A stretch of 64,000 nt of DNA, taken from positions 130,688 to 194,687 of the forward strand of contig CAZCCG010000001.1 in the NCBI GenBank assembly GCA_964497535.1, given 5' to 3'. The translations under genes and the position numbers were made by a program. This document shows positions 4,445 through 37,547 of the stretch, piece after piece. How positions within the stretch are numbered: position 1 is the stretch's first letter; each line of letters begins with the position of its first letter. Below the pieces are notes generated by a model, which had not been told where the DNA came from, made no database searches, and was given only the letters and a program-made list of their open reading frames with translations. The DNA comes from an uncultured Gammaproteobacteria bacterium. Lineage in GTDB: Bacteria; Patescibacteriota; Microgenomatia; Levybacterales; UBA12049.

Positions 4445-4918
4445 ATGGCAAAAGCTACAAAAACAGTTTCAGAGCAAACACAAGTTGAAGATATTGTTCA
4501 GGATTTATTGGAGCGTCTTGAAGTTGAGGCGGAATTTGAGACAGAACTCAAAGATGATGTTGCAGAAATAAAGCTAGATACAGAAGACGGTGGAATGATT
4601 ATTGGATATCATGGAGAGGTTTTGGAATCGCTTCAGTTAATTCTGGCATTGATGGTTTCCAAAAGAATTGGCCGCTTCATCCGTATTTCTTTGGAAGTCG
4701 GAGATTACAAAAAAAACAGAGCTTCGTATTTGGAGCACATGGCACAGCAGACAAAAGAGCAGGCATTGGCGGAAAATCGAGAAATAATACTTCCCAACTT
4801 AAAATCATGGGAACGACGTATTATTCATGTGATTTTGCAAAATGATGAAGCAGTAGTATCAGAATCAAGCGGAGAAGGAAAAGATCGTGTATTAGTCATA
4901 AAACCTCGTGTTGCTTAA
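4445..4918 (+). CDS. jag: Jag/KhpB-like RNA-binding protein (KH + R3H domains)
   Basis: 157 aa. The R3H-like C-terminus RRIIHVILQNDEAVVSESSGEGKDRVLVIKPR and its position right after yidC are typical of Jag. Confidence 0.7.
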   Translation: MAKATKTVSEQTQVEDIVQDLLERLEVEAEFETELKDDVAEIKLDTEDGGMIIGYHGEVLESLQLILALMVSKRIGRFIRISLEVGDYKKNRASYLEHMAQQTKEQALAENREIILPNLKSWERRIIHVILQNDEAVVSESSGEGKDRVLVIKPRVA

Positions 4919-6229: not shown

Positions 6230-7453
6230 ATGTTTTTATCAACTATTTTCAAAAACACGACGTTTCAGTTCGTTAGCCGGCTTATTACCTCTTCATCATC
6301 TTTTATTATTCTTCTTATGGTGGGTTCCTTATTTGGAACGTTAGGATATGGAAGCCTGACCAAAATTATTGCCATTGTTAGCCTTTTTTATCTGGTTGTG
6401 GATTTTGGTTTCAACCCGTTTTATCTGCAGGAAGAAAATACTTCCCTCCAGTTTCGTACCCTTCTCTACTCCCGGTTGCTTATTGCAGGCGTTATTACTT
6501 TTTCCCTGGTACTTTTTGCGCTTTTTGTTCCGGGGAATATCTTTTCTCTCCAGGAGAGAGGTGGAATAGTCCTTTTTTCGATGATGCTTTTTGCCAATGC
6601 CATTGCTTATAGCTCAACAGCATTGTTTCAAAAAAGACTGTCGTATCAGACGCTAACTATTGCTCAGCTTTCCGGTAGCAGTATTGCATTGGTAGTGGCA
6701 GCGGTGCTTTTCCTTGTAAGAGCTCCCCTTCTCTTTTTTCTGGGAGCAATAGTAGTGGGTGGATTGCTATCTGCTCTTCTGTCATTGGTGGCTACAAAAG
6801 AAAAAATTCGTCCTGTTCATATACAATTTGTATTTACCAAAACGCTTATCAGAAAAAGTCTCCCCTATTTTCTTATGCTATTTATTAATATGCTCTACTT
6901 TAGCATTGACACCATCTTGCTTTCTTTTTATACCTCGACTCAATCAGTGGGAATATATGGCCTTTCGTACCAGGTATTCGAATTTTTAATTGCGCTGCCC
7001 CTATTTTTATCCAATTCTATCTATCCTATCCTACTTTCCCTGCAGAAAAATAATAGAATGGCCAAGTCGTACATGCTTCGTTACGCCGGGATATATCTGG
7101 GTGCGGCAGTTGTAGTGATGATACTTGCGTGGATTTTGTCACCCTTGGTTGTATTGGTTCGGGCAGACTTTTCAGCCTCAATTCTTCCCCTTCGAATTTT
7201 GCTTGTGTCACTCCCCTTTTTCTTTTTGACCAGCTTTTTGCAATGGCTTCTTATTACAAAAAACCATCAAATGTTTTTATTGTGGGTATATTTCGGATCC
7301 TTGATCTTAAATATTGTATTAAACATTGTATTTATTCCTCAGTATTCATATGTAGCATCGGCGGTTATAACAGGCATTGGAGAAGTGCTCGTTTTCCTTG
7401 TATTGGCAGTAAAAATACTGCGTACGCCGAAATTTTTTGATAATGGCAACTGA
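6230..7453 (+). CDS. polysaccharide/oligosaccharide flippase-like membrane protein (MOP/Wzx-like)
   Basis: 407 aa, about 12 predicted TM helices. Adjacent to the O-antigen-ligase-like gene. Confidence 0.4.
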   Translation: MFLSTIFKNTTFQFVSRLITSSSSFIILLMVGSLFGTLGYGSLTKIIAIVSLFYLVVDFGFNPFYLQEENTSLQFRTLLYSRLLIAGVITFSLVLFALFVPGNIFSLQERGGIVLFSMMLFANAIAYSSTALFQKRLSYQTLTIAQLSGSSIALVVAAVLFLVRAPLLFFLGAIVVGGLLSALLSLVATKEKIRPVHIQFVFTKTLIRKSLPYFLMLFINMLYFSIDTILLSFYTSTQSVGIYGLSYQVFEFLIALPLFLSNSIYPILLSLQKNNRMAKSYMLRYAGIYLGAAVVVMILAWILSPLVVLVRADFSASILPLRILLVSLPFFFLTSFLQWLLITKNHQMFLLWVYFGSLILNIVLNIVFIPQYSYVASAVITGIGEVLVFLVLAVKILRTPKFFDNGN

Positions 7454-15039: not shown

Positions 15040-15273
15040 ACAGGCATCTTACCCAAAATAAAAATGGCGTGCTTGACAAGTGAGGGACATAATTCTGACA
15101 AGAAATCCTGTTATCGGTTCTCAGTCTCCCGCCTGCAACGCTTTGCGTAGCATTGCGGGCAGGTCGGTTTTCAGATCTTAGTTGGTCTGTTTTCTGTTTT
15201 TCAGTTAAACCGATAGACTGAATACTGATAGACTTGGATCTGATAACAGAGAACAGAAAACTGGATTCTTGTT

Positions 15274-16341
15274 TTATATTACGAGATGGGATGCTCCCAG
15301 GATCGGGCTATTTTCAATTTCAACTAAATCAATCGTATGGTTTGTTAATTGTGGAAGGAGTGCATCAACCCGTTTTTTATATGACGTATCCCAGAAAAAA
15401 CTGCCGTCCATAACAAATATCATATCTTTTTGTCTAAACTCCGTTATTGCCGCCAGTTGGGCACAGATATAGCCTGCGGATCGATCGAGGAGTTCATTTG
15501 CAAGGTTGGATAGTTGCGGTATATGTTGTTGGGAAATATTTTTTAACTCAAGCGTTGAAGTAAGCGGTTGAAAAGAAACACCCTTTTTTTGAATAATGAG
15601 ATTAAAATGTCTATATAAATAGGCACCCGTTATTTCTTTCTCAAATAAAGCGGATTGAGGAAGTGTCGATTCCTGATCAATTTGTTTTCCTTCTTCACTT
15701 TGAGTGAATTTATCAAAGCTATTTGATTCGAGATTTACCAAATGGGTATCATCGATAAAAAACGCAGCATTCATACCGGTTCCCAAAATACCGCAGGCTA
15801 AGGTATCTTTTTTGTATTTTGTTAAGCCGGATAAGAGGAGGCATACGGTATCATTTGCGCAAGAAACAACTATTCTTTGACCACGTTTTTTTAAGAAATA
15901 TTCCGCAATTGTTTTTCCAACTTGTTTGCCCACCAAACCCTTGAATTCATGTTCCTTTGTTCCTCGTATCAATATGCCATCTAAGACATTATTGTCCAGG
16001 ACTGGAGTAAGGGGAACGGCGAAATCCAGCGCTACAACTTTGGTATCAATATGAAGTTTGGTATCCAGATAGTTAAGGAAGACATCAACAGTGTCAAATA
16101 TGGGTTGCATTTTCTCTTCATAACTGAGGGTCTCTATATGATTATTCACTTTTTTTACATGGGCTACTTTGCCCATGCTGCCGCCTACGACAATTACCTG
16201 AAACTCCTGTCCGTCGGTGATAAGCGGTACTGTAGGCAGAGGATTAATAATAAAAGGAAGACTGGTTTTTTTACCAGCTGCCGCATCTTTTAATTCCTGG
16301 ACAAAATTATCCCGGACTGTTTGTAGGATTGCTATATCCAT
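15274..16341 (-). CDS. hexokinase-family sugar kinase
   Basis: Motifs in hexokinase order: VIVVGGSMGKV (phosphate-1), ALDFAVPL (sugar site), ANDTVCLLLSG (NDTVGTL-like), GILGTGMNAAF (GxIxGTGxNxxY), VMDGSFFWDTSYKKRV and a C-terminal ENSPILGASHLV. Confidence 0.6.
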   Translation of the reverse strand: MDIAILQTVRDNFVQELKDAAAGKKTSLPFIINPLPTVPLITDGQEFQVIVVGGSMGKVAHVKKVNNHIETLSYEEKMQPIFDTVDVFLNYLDTKLHIDTKVVALDFAVPLTPVLDNNVLDGILIRGTKEHEFKGLVGKQVGKTIAEYFLKKRGQRIVVSCANDTVCLLLSGLTKYKKDTLACGILGTGMNAAFFIDDTHLVNLESNSFDKFTQSEEGKQIDQESTLPQSALFEKEITGAYLYRHFNLIIQKKGVSFQPLTSTLELKNISQQHIPQLSNLANELLDRSAGYICAQLAAITEFRQKDMIFVMDGSFFWDTSYKKRVDALLPQLTNHTIDLVEIENSPILGASHLVI

Positions 16342-16432: not shown

Positions 16433-17263
16433 TCATATAGTTCTGATTGTTTGGAGTACTTCACCAATCGCGTCATGATACGAGCTATTGGCAACAAATC
16501 CACCATGATCCTGTACAAATTGTTTGTATTCGTCACTCGCGTTGCCAACTGCCGCAACCAGTCCTCCTCTTTCAAGAAGCTGGGATGCGGCATCGATATC
16601 TCGATTATGATCGGCAATAAAAACAGTGGGGGTTGTATGAGGATCGATGGTATGAAGAGAGAGAAGTGTTTGGATGCCTTCTCTTTTGGAAAGTCCCCGG
16701 GGATCTATGTCAATTGCTTTTCCTACATCGATTCTGAAACGATCAGTACAGGCAAGCTCCTCAAGCACCGGTGCCACTTGATGCATTGCGTACTCATGGA
16801 TGTCACACTCTTTTGGGGGTACAATAACAGTTTTTATATATCCCATTCCGGGAAGAAATTGAGCTTCATCTGGTGAAAAAGGAATTGAGGCAACAGCCCC
16901 CTGTTCTTGGAGAGCCTGCCGCAGACGAGGAACATCATGGGATGCATATGTTTTCCATTGTGGGAGAACCGCTTGGGTATTATGTCCTACATCATAGAGT
17001 GATCCTCCACCTTCAGTAATCCATAAACCGTTCTTTTCTCCCAAATAATAAGCAACCGGTTGCATCTCCGAAGGTGGTCTATTGGTAAGTACAGAAACGG
17101 CGCCGCCATTTCGCCGAAAATCCTGCAAGTGCTTGGCCATTTGGACATACGCATCAGGATTAAGGGTATGAAATTGCGGCCATCGTAACACAACTCCATC
17201 AAGATCCAGAATAAGGAATTGTCGTGGTTTTGCTTCTATTTCTGCTGAAGGTCGTTCATGCAT
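16433..17263 (-). CDS. HAD-superfamily (IIB-like) phosphatase
   Basis: Motif I LILDLDGVV near the N-terminus, 276 aa. In an operon with the hexokinase-family gene. Confidence 0.5.
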   Translation of the reverse strand: MHERPSAEIEAKPRQFLILDLDGVVLRWPQFHTLNPDAYVQMAKHLQDFRRNGGAVSVLTNRPPSEMQPVAYYLGEKNGLWITEGGGSLYDVGHNTQAVLPQWKTYASHDVPRLRQALQEQGAVASIPFSPDEAQFLPGMGYIKTVIVPPKECDIHEYAMHQVAPVLEELACTDRFRIDVGKAIDIDPRGLSKREGIQTLLSLHTIDPHTTPTVFIADHNRDIDAASQLLERGGLVAAVGNASDEYKQFVQDHGGFVANSSYHDAIGEVLQTIRTI

Positions 17264-18167
17264 ATAATGCGTATTGTTGGTCTTGAGTAAGAAGACGGGC
17301 GGCAGTGGTTATATCGTCCTGGTCAGGAAGAATACCACCGATCCCAATATGTGTCAAATGGTATATTTCATGAAAATCCTCATGAGAGAGTGATCCTTTG
17401 TGTTTTTCTTCTGCAGCGATGATCCGTAATAAGTCTACATCCTGGGGATTAGGAGCGGATAATAATCGTTCCCGTTGGTCGCCGGTAATATCAATGAGTC
17501 GAAAAGCCTCCATTCCCAAATGAATGCCAATTGCAAACTTAATCCGATCAAACAATATATCTCTTCCTTCAATAGCCCGCAGAAGTTGTGGATAGATAAC
17601 GCGGGCTTGCATCGGAGTGAAGTATCTCTGATCAATAAAATCACGTGACTGCTCCGGGGGAGTAGGCCATTCGCTAATGACGCTTCCGTCTTCTAATTTC
17701 TGGCGGGGAGGCATGGTATCAACATACCACATGGTGCCTGTAGCGTCTTTGCAAAAGTTAGCAGGCGGAGGATCCAGTGAGATAGGAAATCCGGCATCCC
17801 ACACGGTTCTGAAAAGATCCAGGTACTGACTGATATCAGTCAGTACTTCTTCGTTGGTTGTGTTGGGGTCACCAAATGACACCCGCAGATCCGCTCCTGC
17901 CGGAGATACTACTTCAACCAGATTTACCTTTCCGGGATGCCCATTTTTTTCTATGTAATGTCCTTTTGTTTGAGAAACAGGTACTCCTATCTCTGCGGCA
18001 ATTGCCGCAAAGCTTCTCATATGCATCGCAATATCCATTGCATGAGACTGCTCAAATCCATGAGCTTTTTGTCCATATTGCTTCATCAAAAGTTCTGTTC
18101 CTTGGGAGGACATGACAGAAGAGATAACCGAGTGAAATCCTGATACTGTCCTTTGCTCAATTGCCAT
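17256..18167 (-). CDS. hypothetical protein (first gene of the hypothetical/HAD/hexokinase operon)
   Basis: The long ORF extends to 18386 but overlaps the divergent regulator gene. The internal ATG at 18167 (MAIEQRTVSG...) leaves a sensible divergent promoter region. No domain recognized. Confidence 0.4.
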   Translation of the reverse strand: MAIEQRTVSGFHSVISSVMSSQGTELLMKQYGQKAHGFEQSHAMDIAMHMRSFAAIAAEIGVPVSQTKGHYIEKNGHPGKVNLVEVVSPAGADLRVSFGDPNTTNEEVLTDISQYLDLFRTVWDAGFPISLDPPPANFCKDATGTMWYVDTMPPRQKLEDGSVISEWPTPPEQSRDFIDQRYFTPMQARVIYPQLLRAIEGRDILFDRIKFAIGIHLGMEAFRLIDITGDQRERLLSAPNPQDVDLLRIIAAEEKHKGSLSHEDFHEIYHLTHIGIGGILPDQDDITTAARLLTQDQQYALYA

Positions 18168-18281
18168 AACAACTATTCTAAAAGACTTCGTATTGTTGTG
18201 CTTGACGCTTAGGAAACACGGTTCTGACAAAGGGCTGACAACAACCGCATATTGATAACGGGTGGGCAAAACCAGTACAAT

Positions 18282-19616
18282 ATGATGCACCATACTATGG
18301 AAACAGTTAATCTTGAAGCGGAATACCCAATAACATTCCACGAAAAAGAAGCCAGAGAGCTGGGACAGCATCTCAAAAGTCACCACTCAGTAGTTCTGAT
18401 TGGGATGAAGCGCGTAGGAATCAGTAACTTTCTGCGGTTTTTCCTCTATCATAAAGATATTGCCACAACCTACATCGGAGATGGTAAAAAACATCTTTTT
18501 ATTCATGTTGATCTTAATAATCTCGTAGAACGGGAGATACCGGCCTTCTGGACATTGACACTCAAACGGATTGTAGATTCGATTGAAAACACGGATATCC
18601 CGGGTAATATCAAAGATGACATTGAGTCGCTCTTTATGGATAGTATCCAGTCCCAGGATCTGTTTATCACTATTGATAGTGTACGTAAAAGCCTGATGAT
18701 GCTCGTTGAACAAAATATCGAGCCTACCCTCTTTTTTGTTCTTTTTGACCGTATGCAAGATGCTATTACGGTAGAGTTCTTCGCAAATTTACAAGGAATA
18801 CAAGATGCGGTTCATGATCGATTGTCGTATGTATTCACCAGTTTTCGAAGCCTGGATGTTGTTTCTCCGCAAGTATTTACTCGTCCTTCCTTGGTTGTAT
18901 TTTCGCATGATTCATATATCCGACCTGCCAAAAGGGCAGATGTTGAAATTGTTTTTGAAACGCTGCGGCAACAGTATGATTTGGCTGTTTCAGATGAATT
19001 GAGAGAATGGATTTTTGAGCTAGTGGATGGATACATGCGATATTTACATCTGGCGCTAATCCATCTGAATGAGAAAAAGCCGACAGATTTCAAGACAAAA
19101 GAAGAGTTATTCAAGAGCCTTTTGGAAGATGAACGGATTTATTTCCAGTCGGAAGAGCTGTGGGAGAGTTTGAGCCCACAAGAACAAGAAGTGCTGGTAC
19201 AGATTGAGAAAAAGCAGAAAGTTTCAGAAGAGAAAAAAAAGCAGGCAAAATATGTATGGGATACAGGATTTATCTTTGATGGGAAAGGAAAGTGGAATAT
19301 CTTTAGCCCTTTATTTGAGCATTATGTGTCAGAAAAGGTATCAGGACAAAAAAGTGAGGGTATAGTAGCAGGAACCGTTGAATTTACCAAGAAAGAGCAT
19401 TTACTCTTTGATTATCTCAAGAAAAATATCAATGACGTATGCGAGCGGGAGAAAATTATCGAAGCAGTCTGGCCGGAAGTTGAGGCATTGGGGGTTTCAG
19501 ATTGGGCAGTTGATCGACTCGTTGCGCGGGTGAGAAACAAGATGAAAGAGCAGCAAAGCAAGTACGAGATACAAACTATCAAAACCCGGGGGTACAAGCT
19601 CGTTTCTACCGAGTAA
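18282..19616 (+). CDS. transcriptional regulator: N-terminal degenerate P-loop NTPase-like domain plus C-terminal OmpR/PhoB-type winged-helix DNA-binding domain
   Basis: The C-terminal EREKIIEAVWPEVEALGVSDWAVDRLVARVRNKMKE...IQTIKTRGYKLVS is a classic trans_reg_C wHTH. The N-terminus has a Walker-A-like VVLIGMKRVGISNF (Lys replaced by Ile) and Walker-B-like hydrophobic-DE/DR stretches. The ORF-track start at 18252 is a TTG; the first ATG is at 18282. Confidence 0.55.
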   Translation: MMHHTMETVNLEAEYPITFHEKEARELGQHLKSHHSVVLIGMKRVGISNFLRFFLYHKDIATTYIGDGKKHLFIHVDLNNLVEREIPAFWTLTLKRIVDSIENTDIPGNIKDDIESLFMDSIQSQDLFITIDSVRKSLMMLVEQNIEPTLFFVLFDRMQDAITVEFFANLQGIQDAVHDRLSYVFTSFRSLDVVSPQVFTRPSLVVFSHDSYIRPAKRADVEIVFETLRQQYDLAVSDELREWIFELVDGYMRYLHLALIHLNEKKPTDFKTKEELFKSLLEDERIYFQSEELWESLSPQEQEVLVQIEKKQKVSEEKKKQAKYVWDTGFIFDGKGKWNIFSPLFEHYVSEKVSGQKSEGIVAGTVEFTKKEHLLFDYLKKNINDVCEREKIIEAVWPEVEALGVSDWAVDRLVARVRNKMKEQQSKYEIQTIKTRGYKLVSTE

Positions 19617-19659: not shown

Positions 19660-19714
19660 TCGTGAATTATTCGGGAATTGCATTCGGAAATAATTCGGGA
19701 AATTCTCGGGAATT
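19660..19714 (+). promoter_or_regulatory. array of five direct repeats T(T)CG(G/T)GAA(A/T)T at 10-14 bp spacing (candidate operator)
   Basis: Copies begin at 19660 (TCGTGAATT), 19671 (TCGGGAATT), 19685 (TCGGAAATA), 19695 (TCGGGAAAT) and 19706 (TCGGGAATT), i.e. helical-turn periodicity, immediately upstream of promoter P1. Confidence 0.5.
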
Positions 19715-19768: not shown

Positions 19769-19918
19769 TTTCAGTAGTAAATTTCCCCCCATAAGCGCAT
19801 TTTTTGCTTCTGTGGGATAATTTATTTGGACTTTGAAATAATCAGAATCTTATGGATGCCTTTGTGGGTATATGGATACCTACGGAGGTGTTCATAAGTA
19901 ATAGGAGGGGAGAAGTGC

Positions 19919-20155
19919 ATGAGTCAGATGCAGATGGGATATGTCCCTCCGGATGAAGGTTCCTCGAAAGCCGTCTGCGGATCGTGTTGTACAATTCAGA
20001 ACACGTACTCCGACTACTGCGGAGTAAGCTGGATTAAACAGCATCGTTTGCAAGATGGTTCCTTCTGTCCCGGAGGCAGTAAGTTTCCTAATCTCAACGT
20101 AAGTCTTGTGGGTTTGCTCGTTTCCAAGAGGCTGGAAGGAGAGAGTCATGAGTAG
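19919..20155 (+). CDS. small Cys-rich protein (78 aa), first gene of GC-rich cassette 1
   Basis: Strong RBS AGGAGG 8 nt upstream of the ATG. Sequence MSQMQMGYVPPDEGSSKAVCGSCCTIQNTYSDYCGVSWIKQHRLQDGSFCPGG... has 5 Cys. Its stop overlaps the next ATG (ATGAGTAG), suggesting translational coupling. Confidence 0.4.
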   Translation: MSQMQMGYVPPDEGSSKAVCGSCCTIQNTYSDYCGVSWIKQHRLQDGSFCPGGSKFPNLNVSLVGLLVSKRLEGESHE

Positions 20156-20534
20156 GATACAGCCTGAGATGTCGCAACAGGAGATCGCAGAATTCTGCCG
20201 GGAATGGCAGGCTCACCTTGCTCTCCTGGAGGGCAAGGTCAACCCGGAGTATCTGCTCATCGCGCGTTGCGCGGTAACGCCGGAGAATTTCGGCCGCGAG
20301 CAGGGGCAGCTGAGCCCCATTCGGGAGAATTCTCCCTTCGATCTGTATTTTCTCCTCGTTCCGGCACCGGGGGTGCCGGATGCCTTGCTCATCTGCAGAT
20401 TGCAGGCCGAGCAGGTGCAGGAGGCTCTTGACCAGGAGGATCCTAGCCGCGTGGAGATCGATATCTCCACGGTCGAAGGACGCCTCTTCAAACTCCAGCT
20501 CGAGTTGCTGGAGTTGGGCTATCCGCCCAGGTAG
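20148..20534 (+). CDS. hypothetical acidic protein (129 aa) in very GC-rich DNA, second gene of cassette 1
   Basis: RBS AAGGAGAG 5 nt upstream of the ATG at 20148. MSRIQPEMSQQEIAEFCREWQAHLALLEGKVNPEYLLIARCAVTPENFGREQ... Codon usage (CTG/GCC/GGC/CGC) is unlike the neighbours. The GC-richness also produces long stop-free ORFs in other frames. Confidence 0.45.
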   Translation: MSRIQPEMSQQEIAEFCREWQAHLALLEGKVNPEYLLIARCAVTPENFGREQGQLSPIRENSPFDLYFLLVPAPGVPDALLICRLQAEQVQEALDQEDPSRVEIDISTVEGRLFKLQLELLELGYPPR

Positions 20535-20542
20535 TTTCTCAC

Positions 20543-20576
20543 GCCGCCTTTCCCATCTGGGGGAGGCGGCTTTTTA
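20543..20576 (+). terminator. rho-independent terminator of cassette 1
   Basis: GCCGCCTTTCCC-ATCT-GGGGGAGGCGGC stem-loop followed by TTTTTA. Confidence 0.55.
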
Positions 20577-20590
20577 TGGGAATGAGTCTT

Positions 20591-20621
20591 TCGGGAATAA
20601 ATCGGGAAATCCTCGGGAATT
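20591..20621 (+). promoter_or_regulatory. second array of three TCGGGAA(A/T)T direct repeats at 11-bp spacing (plus a degenerate fourth upstream)
   Basis: Copies begin at 20591, 20602 and 20613. Same motif and spacing as the 19660-19714 array, upstream of promoter P2. Confidence 0.5.
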
Positions 20622-20650
20622 ATATCGTCACAGCACTTTACCCTATAGTA

Positions 20651-20679
20651 TTGCACTTGAGGATAAGATCTGCTATACT
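20651..20679 (+). promoter_or_regulatory. sigma70-type promoter P2 (TTGCAC, 17 bp, TATACT)
   Basis: CCTATAGTATTGCAC...17 nt...GCTATACTTTC, paralogous to P1. Confidence 0.5.
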
Positions 20680-20720
20680 TTCTACGCTAGCCACATTCGC
20701 ATCAATGAAAGGACATATCT

Positions 20721-20891
20721 ATGTCTACATGTGGTACCCCGGCAGACCTGGGATATTATTCCGCCTTGATTAAGGACAAGCAGGAAAAATTGGCGATAAC
20801 AGCTTATCCGCAGGTCAAGCAATGTCTTGACTCTCAATGCCCGAGGTGTACGTGGCTCTTTACCCAGTTGCAGCAGCCAATTAGCTCGTAG
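20721..20891 (+). CDS. small Cys-containing peptide (56 aa), cassette 2
   Basis: MSTCGTPADLGYYSALIKDKQEKLAITAYPQVKQCLDSQCPRCTWLFTQLQQPISS with an AAAGGA RBS about 8 nt upstream. Not in the ORF track because it is under 60 aa. GC-elevated and followed by a hairpin. Confidence 0.3.
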   Translation: MSTCGTPADLGYYSALIKDKQEKLAITAYPQVKQCLDSQCPRCTWLFTQLQQPISS

Positions 20892-20896
20892 CATCC

Positions 20897-20940
20897 TAGC
20901 CGCTTATCCCTTTGGGATAGGCGGCTCATTTACTTTTATA
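20897..20940 (+). terminator. putative terminator hairpin of cassette 2
   Basis: TAGCCGCTTATCCC-TTTG-GGATAGGCGGCT stem-loop (similar in sequence to the cassette 1 terminator) followed by the T-rich stretch TTTACTTTTA. Confidence 0.4.
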
Positions 20941-20983
20941 GCCATCTCTTTATAGCAGCCTCACTTCATGTTACAATGACGCC

Positions 20984-23221
20984 ATGGAAAAAAGTTATAA
21001 TCCCAAAGAAGCAGAAGAAAAAATTTATAAGTTTTGGGAAGAAAAAGGCTACTTCAAATCCAATATTAATAAAAGTAAAAAGCCGTTTACTATTCTCCTT
21101 CCTCCTCCTAATGCAAGCGGTCGCATGCATACAGGGAACGTACTCATGATTGCTATTGAAGATTTGCTAATTCGATGGCATCGGATGAAGGGTGATCCTA
21201 CATTATGGATACCAGGCACTGATCATGCAGGGACTGAAACACAAATTACTTTTGAGCGAGAACTCAAGAAGCAAGGGAAATCACGATTCAATTTCAACCG
21301 GGAAGATTTATATAAGCAGATTTGGAATTTTGTACAAAACAATAGACATGTAATTGAAGACCAAATTAAAGAAATGGGAGCTTCAGTTGATTGGTCTCGT
21401 TATACTTTCACATTGGATGACAAAGTTATCAAGACAGTATATGCGACATTTAAGAAAATGACTGATGATGGGTTGGTATATCGTGGGGAGTACATGGTTA
21501 ATTATTGCCCGAAATGTGGCACAACGTATTCAGATGTTGAAATCTCACATATTGAACGAAAAGACCCGCTGTATTATATGAAATATGGACCGTTTGTCTT
21601 GGCAACCGTTCGACCGGAGACTAAATTTGGAGATACAGCAGTTGCAGTAAATCCGAAAGACAAGAGATACAAAGAATGGATTGGAAAAGAAATCGAAGTT
21701 GAGGGGTTAATTGGCAAAGTGACACTGAAAGTTATTGGGGATGATTATGTTGATCAGAAGTTTGGAACAGGAGTAGTAAAGGTGACTCCGGCTCATGACA
21801 AAAATGATTACGATGCCGGATTGCGACACCATCTTGAGATCCGTCCGGTGATTGATTTAAATGGAAAGCTCAATGAGCGAGCAGGAAAATATGCAGGGCT
21901 GAGTGTATTTGAAGCTCGCAAAAAGGTTGTTGAAGACCTGGAAGAAAAGGGACTTATCGAGAAAATGGATGAAAATTATCTCCATACGATTTCTGTATGC
22001 AAAGCAGGGCATGAAATCGAACCCATGGTTTTACCCAATTGGTTTATTCGAGTTGATGACAAAAAAAAGTCATTAAAGAAACCGGCATATGATGCCGTAA
22101 AGAGCGGACAAGTAAAGATTCTTCCTAAATGGCAGGAGAAACGGTACTTTTCATGGATTGAGGAAATGCGAGATTGGCCGATTTCTCGACAGAATACATG
22201 GGGGATTAGGATCCCTGTTTGGTATTCTTTAGAAAAAAACCCAACACTTCAAGTATCATATTTGAAAAATGATGGTCAGAGGGTCATTCGCAGTGGTGAA
22301 GGAATACTAGAAAAAAATGAATTTGAAGAAGCACAAAAAGGTCTTCAAAAAATCATCGCTCCAATCCAATGTACATCTGAGCTTGAGCCGTCATCTCCAA
22401 AAGAACATTATTTACAAGAAACAGACACTTTTGATACGTGGTTTTCCTCAGGTCAATGGCCCCTGGTGACTCTTGGTTATCCTGACTCTGAAGATTTCAA
22501 ATATTTTTATCCCACTTCGGTTATGGAGACTGGATGGGAAATTATGAGACTGTGGGTTTCTCGCATGATTATGTTCGGGATGTATATGACCGGTAAGCCG
22601 CCATTTGAATATGTATACCTTCATGGTCGTGTTATGGCTCCCGATGGTAGAAAGATGAGTAAGTCATTGGGAAATGTGATTAACCCCGAAGAATACCTCG
22701 ATCAATATGGGGCTGATGCTCTCCGGATGGGGCTTATTTCCGGAACCGCGACAGGACAGGATTTTTCCTTTCCGAAAGACAAAATTTTGGGCTACAAGCA
22801 TTTTGCCAATAAGATTTGGAATATGGCCCGGTTTATGCTCATGATGATAGACGAGTACGGTAAAGAGTTGTCCTTGGTTGAAGATCTTGCCAAAGACCAA
22901 CTTACCACAGAAGATAGGGTAATCCTTTCAGACCTGAATAAGCTGATCAAAGTGGTTGACGCATCTTTGGAGAAGTTCCGCTTTACCGATGCAGCAGAAG
23001 GTATTTATCAATTTATGTGGCATACTCTGGCAGATAAATATATAGAGGAAGTTAAAAAACGGGAAGATAAAGAAGTTGCTCTTTCAGTGTTAAGGCATGT
23101 ATATATGACAAGTTTGACGCTCCTTCATCCTTTTATGCCCTTTGTAACAGAAGCAATTTATCAGCAGATACCAGGGAGAAAAAGTGAATCGATTATGATA
23201 CAAAAATGGCCCTCGGAATAA
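20984..23221 (+). CDS. valS: valine--tRNA ligase (short form, no C-terminal coiled coil)
   Basis: PPPNASGRMHTGNV...LWIPGTDHAGTETQ, the editing-domain motifs (RPETKFGDTAVAVNP, GTGVVKVTPAHDKNDY) and KMSKSLGNVINP. Note that the HIGH signature reads HTGN. Confidence 0.85.
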   Translation: MEKSYNPKEAEEKIYKFWEEKGYFKSNINKSKKPFTILLPPPNASGRMHTGNVLMIAIEDLLIRWHRMKGDPTLWIPGTDHAGTETQITFERELKKQGKSRFNFNREDLYKQIWNFVQNNRHVIEDQIKEMGASVDWSRYTFTLDDKVIKTVYATFKKMTDDGLVYRGEYMVNYCPKCGTTYSDVEISHIERKDPLYYMKYGPFVLATVRPETKFGDTAVAVNPKDKRYKEWIGKEIEVEGLIGKVTLKVIGDDYVDQKFGTGVVKVTPAHDKNDYDAGLRHHLEIRPVIDLNGKLNERAGKYAGLSVFEARKKVVEDLEEKGLIEKMDENYLHTISVCKAGHEIEPMVLPNWFIRVDDKKKSLKKPAYDAVKSGQVKILPKWQEKRYFSWIEEMRDWPISRQNTWGIRIPVWYSLEKNPTLQVSYLKNDGQRVIRSGEGILEKNEFEEAQKGLQKIIAPIQCTSELEPSSPKEHYLQETDTFDTWFSSGQWPLVTLGYPDSEDFKYFYPTSVMETGWEIMRLWVSRMIMFGMYMTGKPPFEYVYLHGRVMAPDGRKMSKSLGNVINPEEYLDQYGADALRMGLISGTATGQDFSFPKDKILGYKHFANKIWNMARFMLMMIDEYGKELSLVEDLAKDQLTTEDRVILSDLNKLIKVVDASLEKFRFTDAAEGIYQFMWHTLADKYIEEVKKREDKEVALSVLRHVYMTSLTLLHPFMPFVTEAIYQQIPGRKSESIMIQKWPSE

Positions 23222-23645: not shown

Positions 23646-23750
23646 TGTATAATTTGCCATCGCGAGTAAAGCGCGGCGATCTCAAACATTCATGACCTGC
23701 CTGTAGGGATTACTTCGTCACTTCGTTTCTCGCAATGACAGTAAGTAGAT

Positions 23751-26102: not shown

Positions 26103-26229
26103 TTCAAAAAGTAAAATTTAAAAGTTAAAAGTGTGGTTCCTTTTGAATTTTGCATTTTAACTTTTGACCTTTAACTTGGGGTATCTGATTTGAAATTCTT
26201 AAGGTATCTGAGTATAATCATCCTACTCT

Positions 26230-27957: not shown

Positions 27958-28040
27958 ATTTAATCCCCTCTGTCATTGCGAGGAATGAAATGACGAAGCA
28001 ATCTCACGTCATCCTGAGCTTGTCGAAAGATCTAATTTTC

Positions 28041-33619: not shown

Positions 33620-33633
33620 ATGTAAAAGTCAAA

Positions 33634-34377
33634 ATGCAAAATTCAAAAGGTCAAGTTAAAAGTAAAAATAATTGCCTTCGATTAGAAAATATTTCAGTTT
33701 CGTATTACGAAGTGCCGGTGCTTACCGATGTGAATTTGGATATTGGTCAGGGGGAGTTTATCGCACTGATGGGTCCGAATGGTGCCGGGAAATCCACGAT
33801 TCTCAAAGCTATCTTTGGATTAGTCCCTCAATTTTCAGGTACAATTTTCTGGAATGGCCAAAAAGTTATTCCCATTCCCCATGAGATGGCCAAGTATGGG
33901 ATAGCATTGGTTCCGCAAGGACGAAGGGTTTTTCCCCATTTAACAATCCGCGAAAATCTTGATGTAGGAGGATTTAGTATTTCAGATACAAAAGCACGGA
34001 ACGGTGCAATAGAGCATGTTTTGGACATCTTTCCACAGCTGAAGGAGAAAGAAAAAAAACCAGCCGGAATTCTTTCAGGAGGGCAGCAGCAGATGCTGGC
34101 TATTGCCCGTGCGTTGGTAATCCAGCCGCAGCTTCTTCTATTGGATGAACCAACGCTTGGACTGGCTCCAAAAATTGTAAAAGAAGTATTTGAAAAAATG
34201 AAAGAAATAAATACTCGATACGACACAACCATTCTAGTAGTTGAGCACAATATTAAATCAATTCTTACCTTGACTCACCGCGCGTATATTTTGGATAAGG
34301 GACGAATTATTGAAGAGGGAACATCTCAACAATTGCTCAAAGGGAAAACGCTTCAACGAGTACTGCTGGGAAGTTAA
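33634..34377 (+). CDS. ABC transporter ATP-binding protein (LivF-like)
   Basis: Walker A GPNGAGKST, signature LSGGQQQMLAIARAL, Walker B LLLLDEP. Confidence 0.8.
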   Translation: MQNSKGQVKSKNNCLRLENISVSYYEVPVLTDVNLDIGQGEFIALMGPNGAGKSTILKAIFGLVPQFSGTIFWNGQKVIPIPHEMAKYGIALVPQGRRVFPHLTIRENLDVGGFSISDTKARNGAIEHVLDIFPQLKEKEKKPAGILSGGQQQMLAIARALVIQPQLLLLDEPTLGLAPKIVKEVFEKMKEINTRYDTTILVVEHNIKSILTLTHRAYILDKGRIIEEGTSQQLLKGKTLQRVLLGS

Positions 34378-35171: not shown

Positions 35172-37547
35172 TTAGAGGCCGAGGTGGAAGATTGTTTCAA
35201 AGAAGGGAATTACATTAATTGCTACTTGTGTCACAACTGCCGCCAGTACGCACAGCACTAGCATTTTATTAAAGCTAAAGATCATATTTCCGCGTACCAC
35301 AAATGCCACAAGCAGGCGCAGTCCTACCAGGAGATTAAAGATAAGCGTTCGGGAGGCCAAAGGGGTATGTACCTGTAATAATAATTGAAAAGTAACAAAA
35401 AGAGATCCTGCTAACAGTACTCCTAAAAATGTTATAAAAATGAGCCTTTCACGAGTGAGTATCGGTGAGTTTTGGGTTCTGGGTTGATGTCGCAACATGC
35501 TGGGGTCTTTTGTATCTGCTGCAAGTGCCAATGCAGGAAGGCCGTCTGCAATGAGATTGATCCAGAGGATATCAGTCGGCAGAAGTGGAGAAGGAAGACC
35601 AAACAGAGCAGTTGAAAAAATAAAAAGAATTTGTGCCAAATTACCCGAGAGCAGATAGGTAATTGATTTCAAAATATTGTTATAGATATTGCGTCCTTCT
35701 TCAATTGCTCCAACCAGGGTTGCGAAATTGTCATCCAAAAGGATTATATCTGCTGCCTCTTTGGCTACGTCAGTTCCTGATTGTCCCATGGCAATTCCCA
35801 CATCTGCGCGTTTGAGAGCCAGGCTGTCATTAACTCCGTCACCGGTTACTCCCACTACATATCCGTTTCTTTTGAATGCCTCAACCAGTCGTAATTTATC
35901 TTCAGGTTCTGATCTGGCAAAAATATTGATTTTTCCAATGATCTGGTCAAGCTGCGAATCGGTAAGTTTTTTCAGCTGATCACCGGTGAGGACATCTTCA
36001 TCTTTCTCAACCAATCCGACTTCTTTGGCAATGGTGAGTGCTGTTAGTTCATTATCTCCGGTTACCATTACGGTATGAATACCGGCTCGTCGTGCTTGCT
36101 CGACGGCTTGGTGTGCAGCTTCACGTGGAGGATCATAAATACCAACGATCCCGGTGAAGTGAAGGTGACTTTCAGCATGTTTGCGGTCGGGTATTCCATC
36201 ATGATCCTCAACTTTGTATCCAAATCCGATCACCCGCAAGCCTTCTTTTGCAAAAATATCAACCTGGGTAAGTATTTTTTCTTTCTCAGTTTCCGACTGT
36301 GTACTGCTTGCAAGAATTGCTTCCGGAGCTCCGCGAACAAATACATGAGTTTTTCCATCATGCTTCAAAACAGCTGAAATTGTTTGAGTTTGTGGATCAA
36401 ACGCATATTCTTCAAGCGGTTTTGACAATCCGTCCCATATCGTTGTACGTTTTCTTTGAGCTGTTGCCCACAAAAGCAGTGCTCCGTCTGTTTTATCACC
36501 CACCACATCCCATTCATCTTTGGGGGAATGTGATCCCTCCTTTTCTACAATCGTTGCGGTATTGGCAACCATACAGGCGGGGAGGATATATTTCATCTCT
36601 TCCGGCTTTTTTGTCCACCATTTTTTAACTTTCATATTATTTTGTGTTAATGTACCGGTTTTATCTACTAAAATGACCTGGACAGATCCTAATGTTTCAA
36701 TAGCAGGCATTTTACGAACAATTGCATTTCTTTTGGCCATGCGGTTGGTTCCAATTGCCAAAGCGATTGTGATAACTGCTGGCAACCCTTCAGGAATTGC
36801 GGCAATTGCGATGCTCACTGCCAGAAGGGTGAGGGGAAGTAATTGTTGTCCGTGCATAAGGCCAATGGGGATAATCAACAGCGCCCATCCGATTGCTGAG
36901 ATCGAAATGAATCTACTCAACGTATCAATCTTTTTCTGAAGCGGACTTTGATCCATCTCAAGAGTGGAAAGGGTATGTGCAATTGAACCAAGACGGGTTT
37001 GCATACCAATTTTCTCAACCAACATTTTCCCTTTGCCTTGCGTTACTAATGTCCCTTTCAGAACTGTATCATTGTGGTTTTTGGTGATGGGTAATGATTC
37101 TCCAGTCAAAAGCGATTCGTCAATCTCGATATGATGGTCTAAAATAAGCCTGCCATCAGCGGGAATACGATCCCCTTCTGATAACAGGACTACATCCTCT
37201 GGTACCAGTTCGTTGGTTGGGATCAGATGTTCTTTCCCGTCACGAAAGACTCGTGATATCGGTTTAACATATGATGATAATTTCTGTAGTGCCTTTTGCG
37301 CGCGGTATTCCTGAATAAATCCCAAAATTCCATTGAGAAGCAATATCAGCAGTATAAAAATGCCGTCAAAACGATCAGTAATAAAAAATGAAAGGAGACC
37401 TGCAGTAAAAAGGATAGCGTTAATTACGGTGGGAAATTGGGAAAGAAAGAGCAGTAGCGTTGTTTTTTGTTCAGAGGTGGTAATCTCATTTTTACCATAT
37501 TCCTCCCGACGTTTTGCAGCTTGTTGTGATGTTATTCCTTGCTCCAT
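35172..37547 (-). CDS. cation-transporting P-type ATPase (type II, Ca2+/Mg2+-like)
   Basis: Phosphorylation motif DKTGTLT, TGDN, hinge GDGVNDSLALKRADVGIAMG, 791 aa with about 10 TM segments. Confidence 0.85.
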   Translation of the reverse strand: MEQGITSQQAAKRREEYGKNEITTSEQKTTLLLFLSQFPTVINAILFTAGLLSFFITDRFDGIFILLILLLNGILGFIQEYRAQKALQKLSSYVKPISRVFRDGKEHLIPTNELVPEDVVLLSEGDRIPADGRLILDHHIEIDESLLTGESLPITKNHNDTVLKGTLVTQGKGKMLVEKIGMQTRLGSIAHTLSTLEMDQSPLQKKIDTLSRFISISAIGWALLIIPIGLMHGQQLLPLTLLAVSIAIAAIPEGLPAVITIALAIGTNRMAKRNAIVRKMPAIETLGSVQVILVDKTGTLTQNNMKVKKWWTKKPEEMKYILPACMVANTATIVEKEGSHSPKDEWDVVGDKTDGALLLWATAQRKRTTIWDGLSKPLEEYAFDPQTQTISAVLKHDGKTHVFVRGAPEAILASSTQSETEKEKILTQVDIFAKEGLRVIGFGYKVEDHDGIPDRKHAESHLHFTGIVGIYDPPREAAHQAVEQARRAGIHTVMVTGDNELTALTIAKEVGLVEKDEDVLTGDQLKKLTDSQLDQIIGKINIFARSEPEDKLRLVEAFKRNGYVVGVTGDGVNDSLALKRADVGIAMGQSGTDVAKEAADIILLDDNFATLVGAIEEGRNIYNNILKSITYLLSGNLAQILFIFSTALFGLPSPLLPTDILWINLIADGLPALALAADTKDPSMLRHQPRTQNSPILTRERLIFITFLGVLLAGSLFVTFQLLLQVHTPLASRTLIFNLLVGLRLLVAFVVRGNMIFSFNKMLVLCVLAAVVTQVAINVIPFFETIFHLGL

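Follow-up and report, generated by a model that had tools for sequence, protein, structure and literature searches.

The DNA sites of the OmpR/PhoB family of regulators are tandem direct repeats placed about one helical turn apart and upstream of a promoter, as in the pho boxes. Among small cysteine-containing proteins, the zinc ribbons have two beta-hairpins, each of which bears a CxxC or CPxC knuckle, so that the four metal ligands come from two pairs, and peptides secreted through the Sec system begin with a signal peptide that has a hydrophobic core. Lineage-specific orphan proteins of about 50 residues are typically encoded by short stand-alone ORFs, each with a promoter, a ribosome-binding site and an intrinsic terminator to itself, are missed or mis-framed by gene callers, and are without detectable homologues. 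In the CPR bacteria, genomes are tiny, experimental data are almost absent and many of the small genes are uncharacterised. Here, we have analyzed a 56-codon ORF in a CPR genome that resembles the orphan small proteins in all of these respects but differs from the well-established ones, which are backed by expression evidence or at least by conservation, in being known from sequence alone.

The ORF is located at positions 20721-20891 on the forward strand of a 64,000-nt stretch of DNA, hereafter referred to as the window, and reads MSTCGTPADLGYYSALIKDKQEKLAITAYPQVKQCLDSQCPRCTWLFTQLQQPISS. On its 5' side, three TCGGGAA repeats (20591-20619, forward strand) start at positions 20591, 20602 and 20613, and thus form a tandem array with 11-bp spacing upstream of a core promoter (20651-20679, forward strand), with which they make up the module P2 (20591-20679). 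In the core promoter, 17 nt separate a -35 box, TTGCAC (20651-20656), from an extended -10 box, TGCTATACT (20671-20679), and transcription would start near position 20686 and leave a 5' untranslated region of about 35 nt. A Shine-Dalgarno (SD)-like GAAAGGA (20707-20713, forward strand) is placed 7 nt upstream of the ATG, and only 6 nt separate the stop codon from the stem of a hairpin, T2 (20898-20939, forward strand). This hairpin has a 13-bp stem (20898-20926) with 8 GC pairs followed by the T-rich, interrupted tract CATTTACTTTTAT, and hence the arrangement of a G+C-rich hairpin and a U-rich tract that is characteristic of intrinsic terminators. The predicted transcript from P2 to T2 is about 245 nt long.

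All of these elements had been proposed in a first-pass annotation of the window, and each of them, promoter, operator repeats, ribosome-binding site and hairpin terminator, was recovered around the ORF, the translation of which yielded the same 56 residues as quoted there, including the peptides MSTCGTPADLGYYSALIK, LAITAYPQVK and CTWLFTQLQQPISS. The accompanying description of a self-contained unit holds as far as the anatomy is concerned, with comparative data behind the promoter and operator. The region 20591-20939 is best explained as an independent transcription unit that would be under the control of the regulator described below. The sequence is also open in other frames, with an overlapping ORF of 65 aa in another forward frame (20576-20773) and one of 70 aa on the antisense strand (20682-20894). 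The automatic gene caller selected the 65-aa ORF, the frame of which crosses the promoter, on one contig from the Logan assemblies, and both this ORF and the 56-aa frame, cut off by the contig end, on a second.

The core promoter of P2 was read from the sequence and scores below the threshold of the sigma-70 scan. It aligns with a second module, P1 (19660-19768, forward strand), the hexamers of which pass the scan. P1 contains five TCGGGAA-type repeats, starting at 19660, 19671, 19684, 19695 and 19706, a -35 box, TTGACT, and the same extended -10 box, TGCTATACT. The alignment of P2 to P1 (19659-19775), situated 910 nt upstream, extends across some 160 nt, in which the repeats are nearly identical; CCTATAGTnTTG is common to both and TGCTATACTTT is identical. 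P1 and P2 are paralogous. A two-repeat pattern (TCGGGAA, 4 nt, TCGGGAA, with at most two mismatches) was matched six times in the 64-kb window against an expectation of 0.46, and five of the six matches fall in P1 (19660-19712) and P2. The exact 22-mer of the operator gave no match in a metagenome scan.

The presumed regulator gene is located immediately upstream of P1 (18297-19616, forward strand) and encodes a protein with an AAA-like N-terminal part and a C-terminal winged helix of the OmpR/PhoB type (Pfam Trans_reg_C, E=2.9e-14). The protein is 439 aa long if started at the ATG of the public gene calls, while the ORF opens at a TTG at position 18252. About 1650 homologues were identified at E<=0.001, several of which are named at their source as Candidatus Levybacteria or Patescibacteria and many of which are 55-63% identical to the query; one entry (P0002) is 100% identical to the regulator across 439 aa. 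From these names, the window is assigned to a CPR bacterium of the Candidatus Levybacteria. A scan of genome contigs with the regulator sequence alone retrieved no close relative, and a scan with the regulator alignment retrieved 80 loci.

The gene order from the regulator to valS, which is located at 20984-23221 on the forward strand of the window, is maintained in the relatives, most of which have an intergenic region of only 40-220 nt. This short spacer contains the triple TCGGGAA motif and, behind it, an extended -10 box from which valS would be transcribed without a leader, as for example in L003, L005, L007, L020, L031 and L032, and in the relatives that carry the triple motif the module is normally placed directly 5' of valS. 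When up to three mismatches were allowed, the triple motif was matched 64 times, next to the regulator gene in 45 of 82 related loci, and never in shuffled versions of them; the repeats are thus a DNA signal that is conserved throughout the lineage and linked to this regulator. The operator repeats of the first-pass annotation have thereby gained strong, if indirect, comparative support, and P2 is best explained as a duplicated copy of what appears to be the regulator's own target module, consisting of the triple TCGGGAA motif and the extended -10 box.

The likeness to the OmpR/PhoB sites is considerable. Three 7-bp direct repeats with 11-bp spacing are positioned 5' of a -35 box, a gene for a Trans_reg_C winged-helix protein adjoins them, and the motif is conserved in the lineage. 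However, the regulator lacks a receiver domain and has an AAA-like N-terminal part in its place, TCGGGAA matched none of the known operators that were checked, and the relatives have a second, inverted copy of the motif beyond valS. This inverted triple TCGGGAA is found about 2.3 kb downstream of the first in many Levybacteria (L003 9865(-), L005 4196(-), L007 6759(-), L026 7049(-), L028 6848(-) and many others), such that the pair brackets valS, and no such copy was seen beyond valS in the window. It might serve in DNA looping, as a divergent promoter or as a site of recombination.

Upstream of the regulator, three genes are encoded in the divergent direction: a hexokinase-like gene (15274-16341, reverse strand), a HAD-IIB phosphatase-like gene (16433-17263, reverse strand) and a gene for a 376-aa protein that matched no family (17256-18386, reverse strand). 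This three-gene arrangement is retained in L002 and L003.

The position of the unit next to valS raises the question of whether P2-T2 could be a regulatory leader of valS, an attenuator or a T-box-like element, with read-through of T2 coupling valS to the regulator. The operator module is placed directly 5' of valS in the relatives, T2 is just 57 nt from the valS ATG, and the interruption of the U-tract makes some read-through conceivable. However, valS has its own extended -10 promoter (TGTTACAAT; 20949-20977, forward strand), homologous to the valS promoters in the relatives, which ends 6 nt upstream of the ATG at 20984 and so implies a leaderless valS mRNA, as in the relatives. Furthermore, neither a T-box nor any other leader was matched in Rfam, and no alternative antiterminator structure was evident in the fold. 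We consider a leader function to be highly improbable.

The spacer between the regulator and valS in the window is 1,367 nt long with a GC content of 49%, as compared with about 40% for the genome, and contains two units. Judging from the comparison with relatives, the junction of the regulator and valS is a hotspot for insertions, and the P2 unit belongs to one that is specific to this strain. Inserts at this junction were also found in L009, L013, L020, L022, L032, L043 and L065, and the other inserts include MazF-like and BrnT/BrnA-like toxin-antitoxin pairs, a PIN toxin, a NUDIX gene and glycosyltransferases. The operator module is doubled and flanks the insert in the window as well as in L002, L013 and L032, and the toxin-antitoxin pair inserted in L009 is preceded by a module that has a -10 box of its own.

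The first unit of the insertion, behind P1, contains two ORFs. One of these encodes a 78-aa cysteine-containing protein (19919-20155, forward strand) preceded by an AGGAGG ribosome-binding site. The other encodes a 128-aa protein (20148-20534, forward strand), overlaps the first, has a strong SD and a GC content of 59%, and is followed by the terminator T1 (20543-20570, forward strand), a 12-bp stem and then TTTTT. T1 and T2 are 79% alike across 29 nt. The 128-aa ORF has a strong, GC-rich coding periodicity (GC1/2/3 = 0.68/0.37/0.74) and found no match other than itself among 5.8 billion protein clusters; this orphan gene is probably of foreign origin and acquired by horizontal transfer. The leader of the P1 unit contains a near-perfect hairpin of 23 bp (19849-19898) directly 5' of the AGGAGG site, and the 150-nt leader as a whole folds at -52.8 kcal/mol (z=-5.3). 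This hairpin could gate the translation or transcription of the P1 unit.

The closest relative, L002, the regulator of which is 79% identical, has a simpler arrangement: a first module, an ORF of 65 aa with the cysteine pattern CxxC...CPG, a terminator and a second module. Its 65-aa ORF (6473-6670) resembles the 78-aa ORF in the window (pairwise BLASTP, E=2e-4), and the two have the pattern PPxEG..CGxCxTxQ..(22 residues)..GxxCPG in common, although the 78-aa ORF matched no family in Pfam, NCBIfam, PHROGs or PADLOC. The 78-aa protein having a counterpart in L002, small proteins are the cargo of the module in the one close relative that bears such a cassette, which speaks in favor of translation in the P2 unit as well. 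The T2-type hairpin has a single other copy among the window and 92 related loci, and this copy, the terminator in L002 (6700-6740), is orthologous to T2; nothing in L002 matches the 56-aa coding segment.

Alternatively, the P2 unit may be a by-product in decay, left when the P1 cassette underwent tandem duplication or recombination at the hotspot, in which case the ORF would be an accident of functionless scar DNA. In line with this, P1 and P2 as well as T1 and T2 are paralogous, the unit is a singleton in the lineage, and the content of the junction varies greatly from relative to relative, the inserts being toxin-antitoxin pairs, NUDIX genes and glycosyltransferases. In addition, a segment covering the 3' end of the ORF and an arm of T2 (20865-20903) matches, in frame, a segment of the 128-aa gene (20412-20450), with 28 of the 39 positions identical (blastn E=0.002; Smith-Waterman score 17, as compared with a maximum of 16 among shuffles). 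This similarity may be a trace of recombination, but it is short and marginally significant, and the 56-aa product has no protein-level similarity to the 78-aa and 128-aa products or to the ORF in L002. Nor does the unit look decayed, with intact promoter hexamers, three perfect operator repeats, an SD and a terminator. We regard this origin as decidedly unlikely.

A few dispersed intergenic repeats were observed elsewhere in the window. These include a 34-nt inverted pair (23708-23741 and 27970-28003; 88% complementary), a 27-nt inverted pair (26139-26165 and 33624-33650; 96%) and a 47-nt direct pair (2766-2812 and 15163-15209; 85%), the last of which is accompanied by a 26-nt inverted pair (2858-2883 and 15101-15126).

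Whether the P2 unit encodes a protein is a more difficult question. When the transcribed segment was shuffled 20,000 times with its dinucleotide composition preserved, an ORF of 56 or more codons starting with ATG arose in 5.3% of the shuffles and was accompanied by a suitably spaced SD-like motif in 0.25%, which indicates that the ORF by itself is near the level of chance but that the whole package is not. The codon usage is not host-like, with a log-odds score of -5.8 bits against host genes, as compared with 18.4 +/- 6.8 bits for 56-codon chunks of real host genes, every one of which scored above the ORF. The periodicity is likewise weak (GC1/2/3 = 0.45/0.46/0.57). Both measures carry little weight for DNA of foreign or recent origin.

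The translation signals point in the other direction. A clear SD was found in just two of the 48 genes in the window, at 4445(+) and 28847(-), and in both it is GAAAGGA, at the same spacing (-14 to -8) as at the 56-codon ORF. The tight fit of the ORF between the short 5' untranslated region and the terminator likewise speaks for coding. Many genes in the window have instead a TAnAAT box that ends 6-8 nt upstream of the start codon and no SD (for example those at 6230, 10678, 12796, 20984, 25617, 31082, 35172-37547(-) and 62064), which implies that leaderless mRNAs are widespread. Our literature search on leaderless translation in Levybacteria or Patescibacteria returned no papers.

These observations need to be weighed against the possibility that P2-T2 is transcribed but not translated, as a small RNA of about 245 nt under the control of the regulator, or else that it is a spare copy of the operator and promoter with a chance ORF. 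The near-chance length of the ORF, the codon usage and periodicity, the equally long ORFs that overlap it in other frames and the lack of a protein homologue are all compatible with such a transcript, as is the finding of a 35-nt leader with an SD in a genome segment where most genes are leaderless. However, the body of the RNA has no excess structure (z=-0.5 relative to shuffles), and the Rfam search, carried to E<=10, gave no gathering-level match and only chance-level matches at E>2, which together argue against a structured RNA, be it a T-box or of another kind. There is also no conserved RNA counterpart among the 92 related loci, and a non-coding transcript would leave to be explained why the SD heptamer is found at exactly the spacing seen in the two SD-bearing host genes. 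We consider a non-coding unit to be rather unlikely, although an alternative to be reckoned with. Translation into a small protein is plausible but unproven, and we favor it with some hesitation, at slightly below an even chance. The ORF is in this sense a plausible lineage-specific small gene.

The searches for homologues of the 56-aa peptide were extensive, and none was found. There was no homologue in 5.8 billion protein clusters, no match in Pfam, NCBIfam, PHROGs or PADLOC, and no tblastn match among the 92 related loci. The best match in a sequence search of the PDB was an unrelated enzyme (E=0.77), back-translated scans of metagenome and viral contigs produced no match, and the phage and plasmid collections gave one match at E=0.5 and no homologue. 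The Logan assemblies of the locus, which come from three runs, show 100% identity with the window, so that no signal of substitution or selection can be read from the 56 codons.

An exhaustive HMMER search of 1.84 billion representatives yielded three matches, all to long repeat proteins. One of these (P0123) was rejected as a junk repetitive translation. The other two (P0122 and P0124) are large repeat proteins resembling surface proteins, with a 47-residue repeat of the beta-propeller type, GxYSSIAIDSNNKxHISHY, and residues 3-36 of the peptide align to one repeat unit with about 40% identity. The E-value of 4e-11 is inflated, since the scores of many near-identical repeat copies were summed. 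A profile of the repeat unit gave 12.9 bits, or about 4e-6 in a single comparison, which is not significant database-wide. The kinship was thus rejected, and the resemblance is probably due to chance.

The four cysteines of the peptide, at positions 4, 35, 40 and 43, had led to the suggestion of a small zinc ribbon or a disulfide-stabilised secreted peptide. The likeness to zinc-ribbon proteins consists of the four cysteines and one CPRC knuckle (C40-P-R-C43). Yet, this is a single knuckle, C4 and C35 are placed elsewhere, no family was matched, and the prediction is helical: the single-sequence AlphaFold2 model (pLDDT 73, pTM 0.49) has three helices and no strands. The antisense 70-aa ORF gave lower values (pLDDT 59, pTM 0.30), a difference in favor of coding, although the comparison is a thin one given that it involves one control. 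No structural relative of the model was identified in the PDB with Foldseek. The zinc-ribbon assignment is accordingly not upheld for this peptide. The 78-aa ORF and its counterpart in L002 appear to be better candidates for that description, as judged from their cysteine patterns.

The idea of a secreted peptide fared no better. By the Kyte-Doolittle scale, the peptide has no hydrophobic N-terminal segment (maximum mean over 11 residues 0.62; GRAVY -0.28), and there are no modification, protease or export genes near the ORF, the neighbors of which are the regulator, the hexokinase-like gene, the HAD hydrolase, valS, a NUDIX gene and a deformylase. A precursor of a RiPP or bacteriocin was also considered, and was rejected in view of the same neighborhood. 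The most that can be said is that the product would be cytoplasmic, small and helical, with a possible metal or redox site formed by three cysteines.

Taken together, the best explanation as a whole is that of a regulator-controlled unit with a translated 56-aa orphan, an interpretation that we put forward tentatively, as one that falls just short of being probable. According to this hypothesis, the regulator would bind to the TCGGGAA repeats and control initiation near position 20686, and the resulting transcript of about 245 nt would end at the hairpin T2. Translation from GAAAGGA-N7-ATG would then most likely give a soluble, cytoplasmic and mainly helical orphan protein of 56 residues, in which a role in metal binding or in a disulfide is conceivable for the C35/C40/C43 cluster.

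A broader hypothesis is that the triple TCGGGAA motif and the extended -10 box constitute a portable module of a regulator found throughout the Levybacteria, which has been duplicated at the hotspot and captures foreign or new small genes. In this reduced CPR genome, the 56-codon ORF would then encode a very young cysteine-containing protein, arisen de novo or recently acquired, that shares its control with the essential gene valS. We think of this scenario as unlikely in its entirety.

If translated, the 56-codon ORF would be a lineage-specific small protein of a CPR bacterium, although as a singleton it is by itself of modest interest. Its context is more useful than the ORF, in that a conserved pair of a regulator and its putative operator is tied to valS across the Levybacteria. 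The junction between these genes gathers cargo genes, at times together with a second copy of the operator module. This context offers a testable handle on gene regulation in the CPR bacteria.
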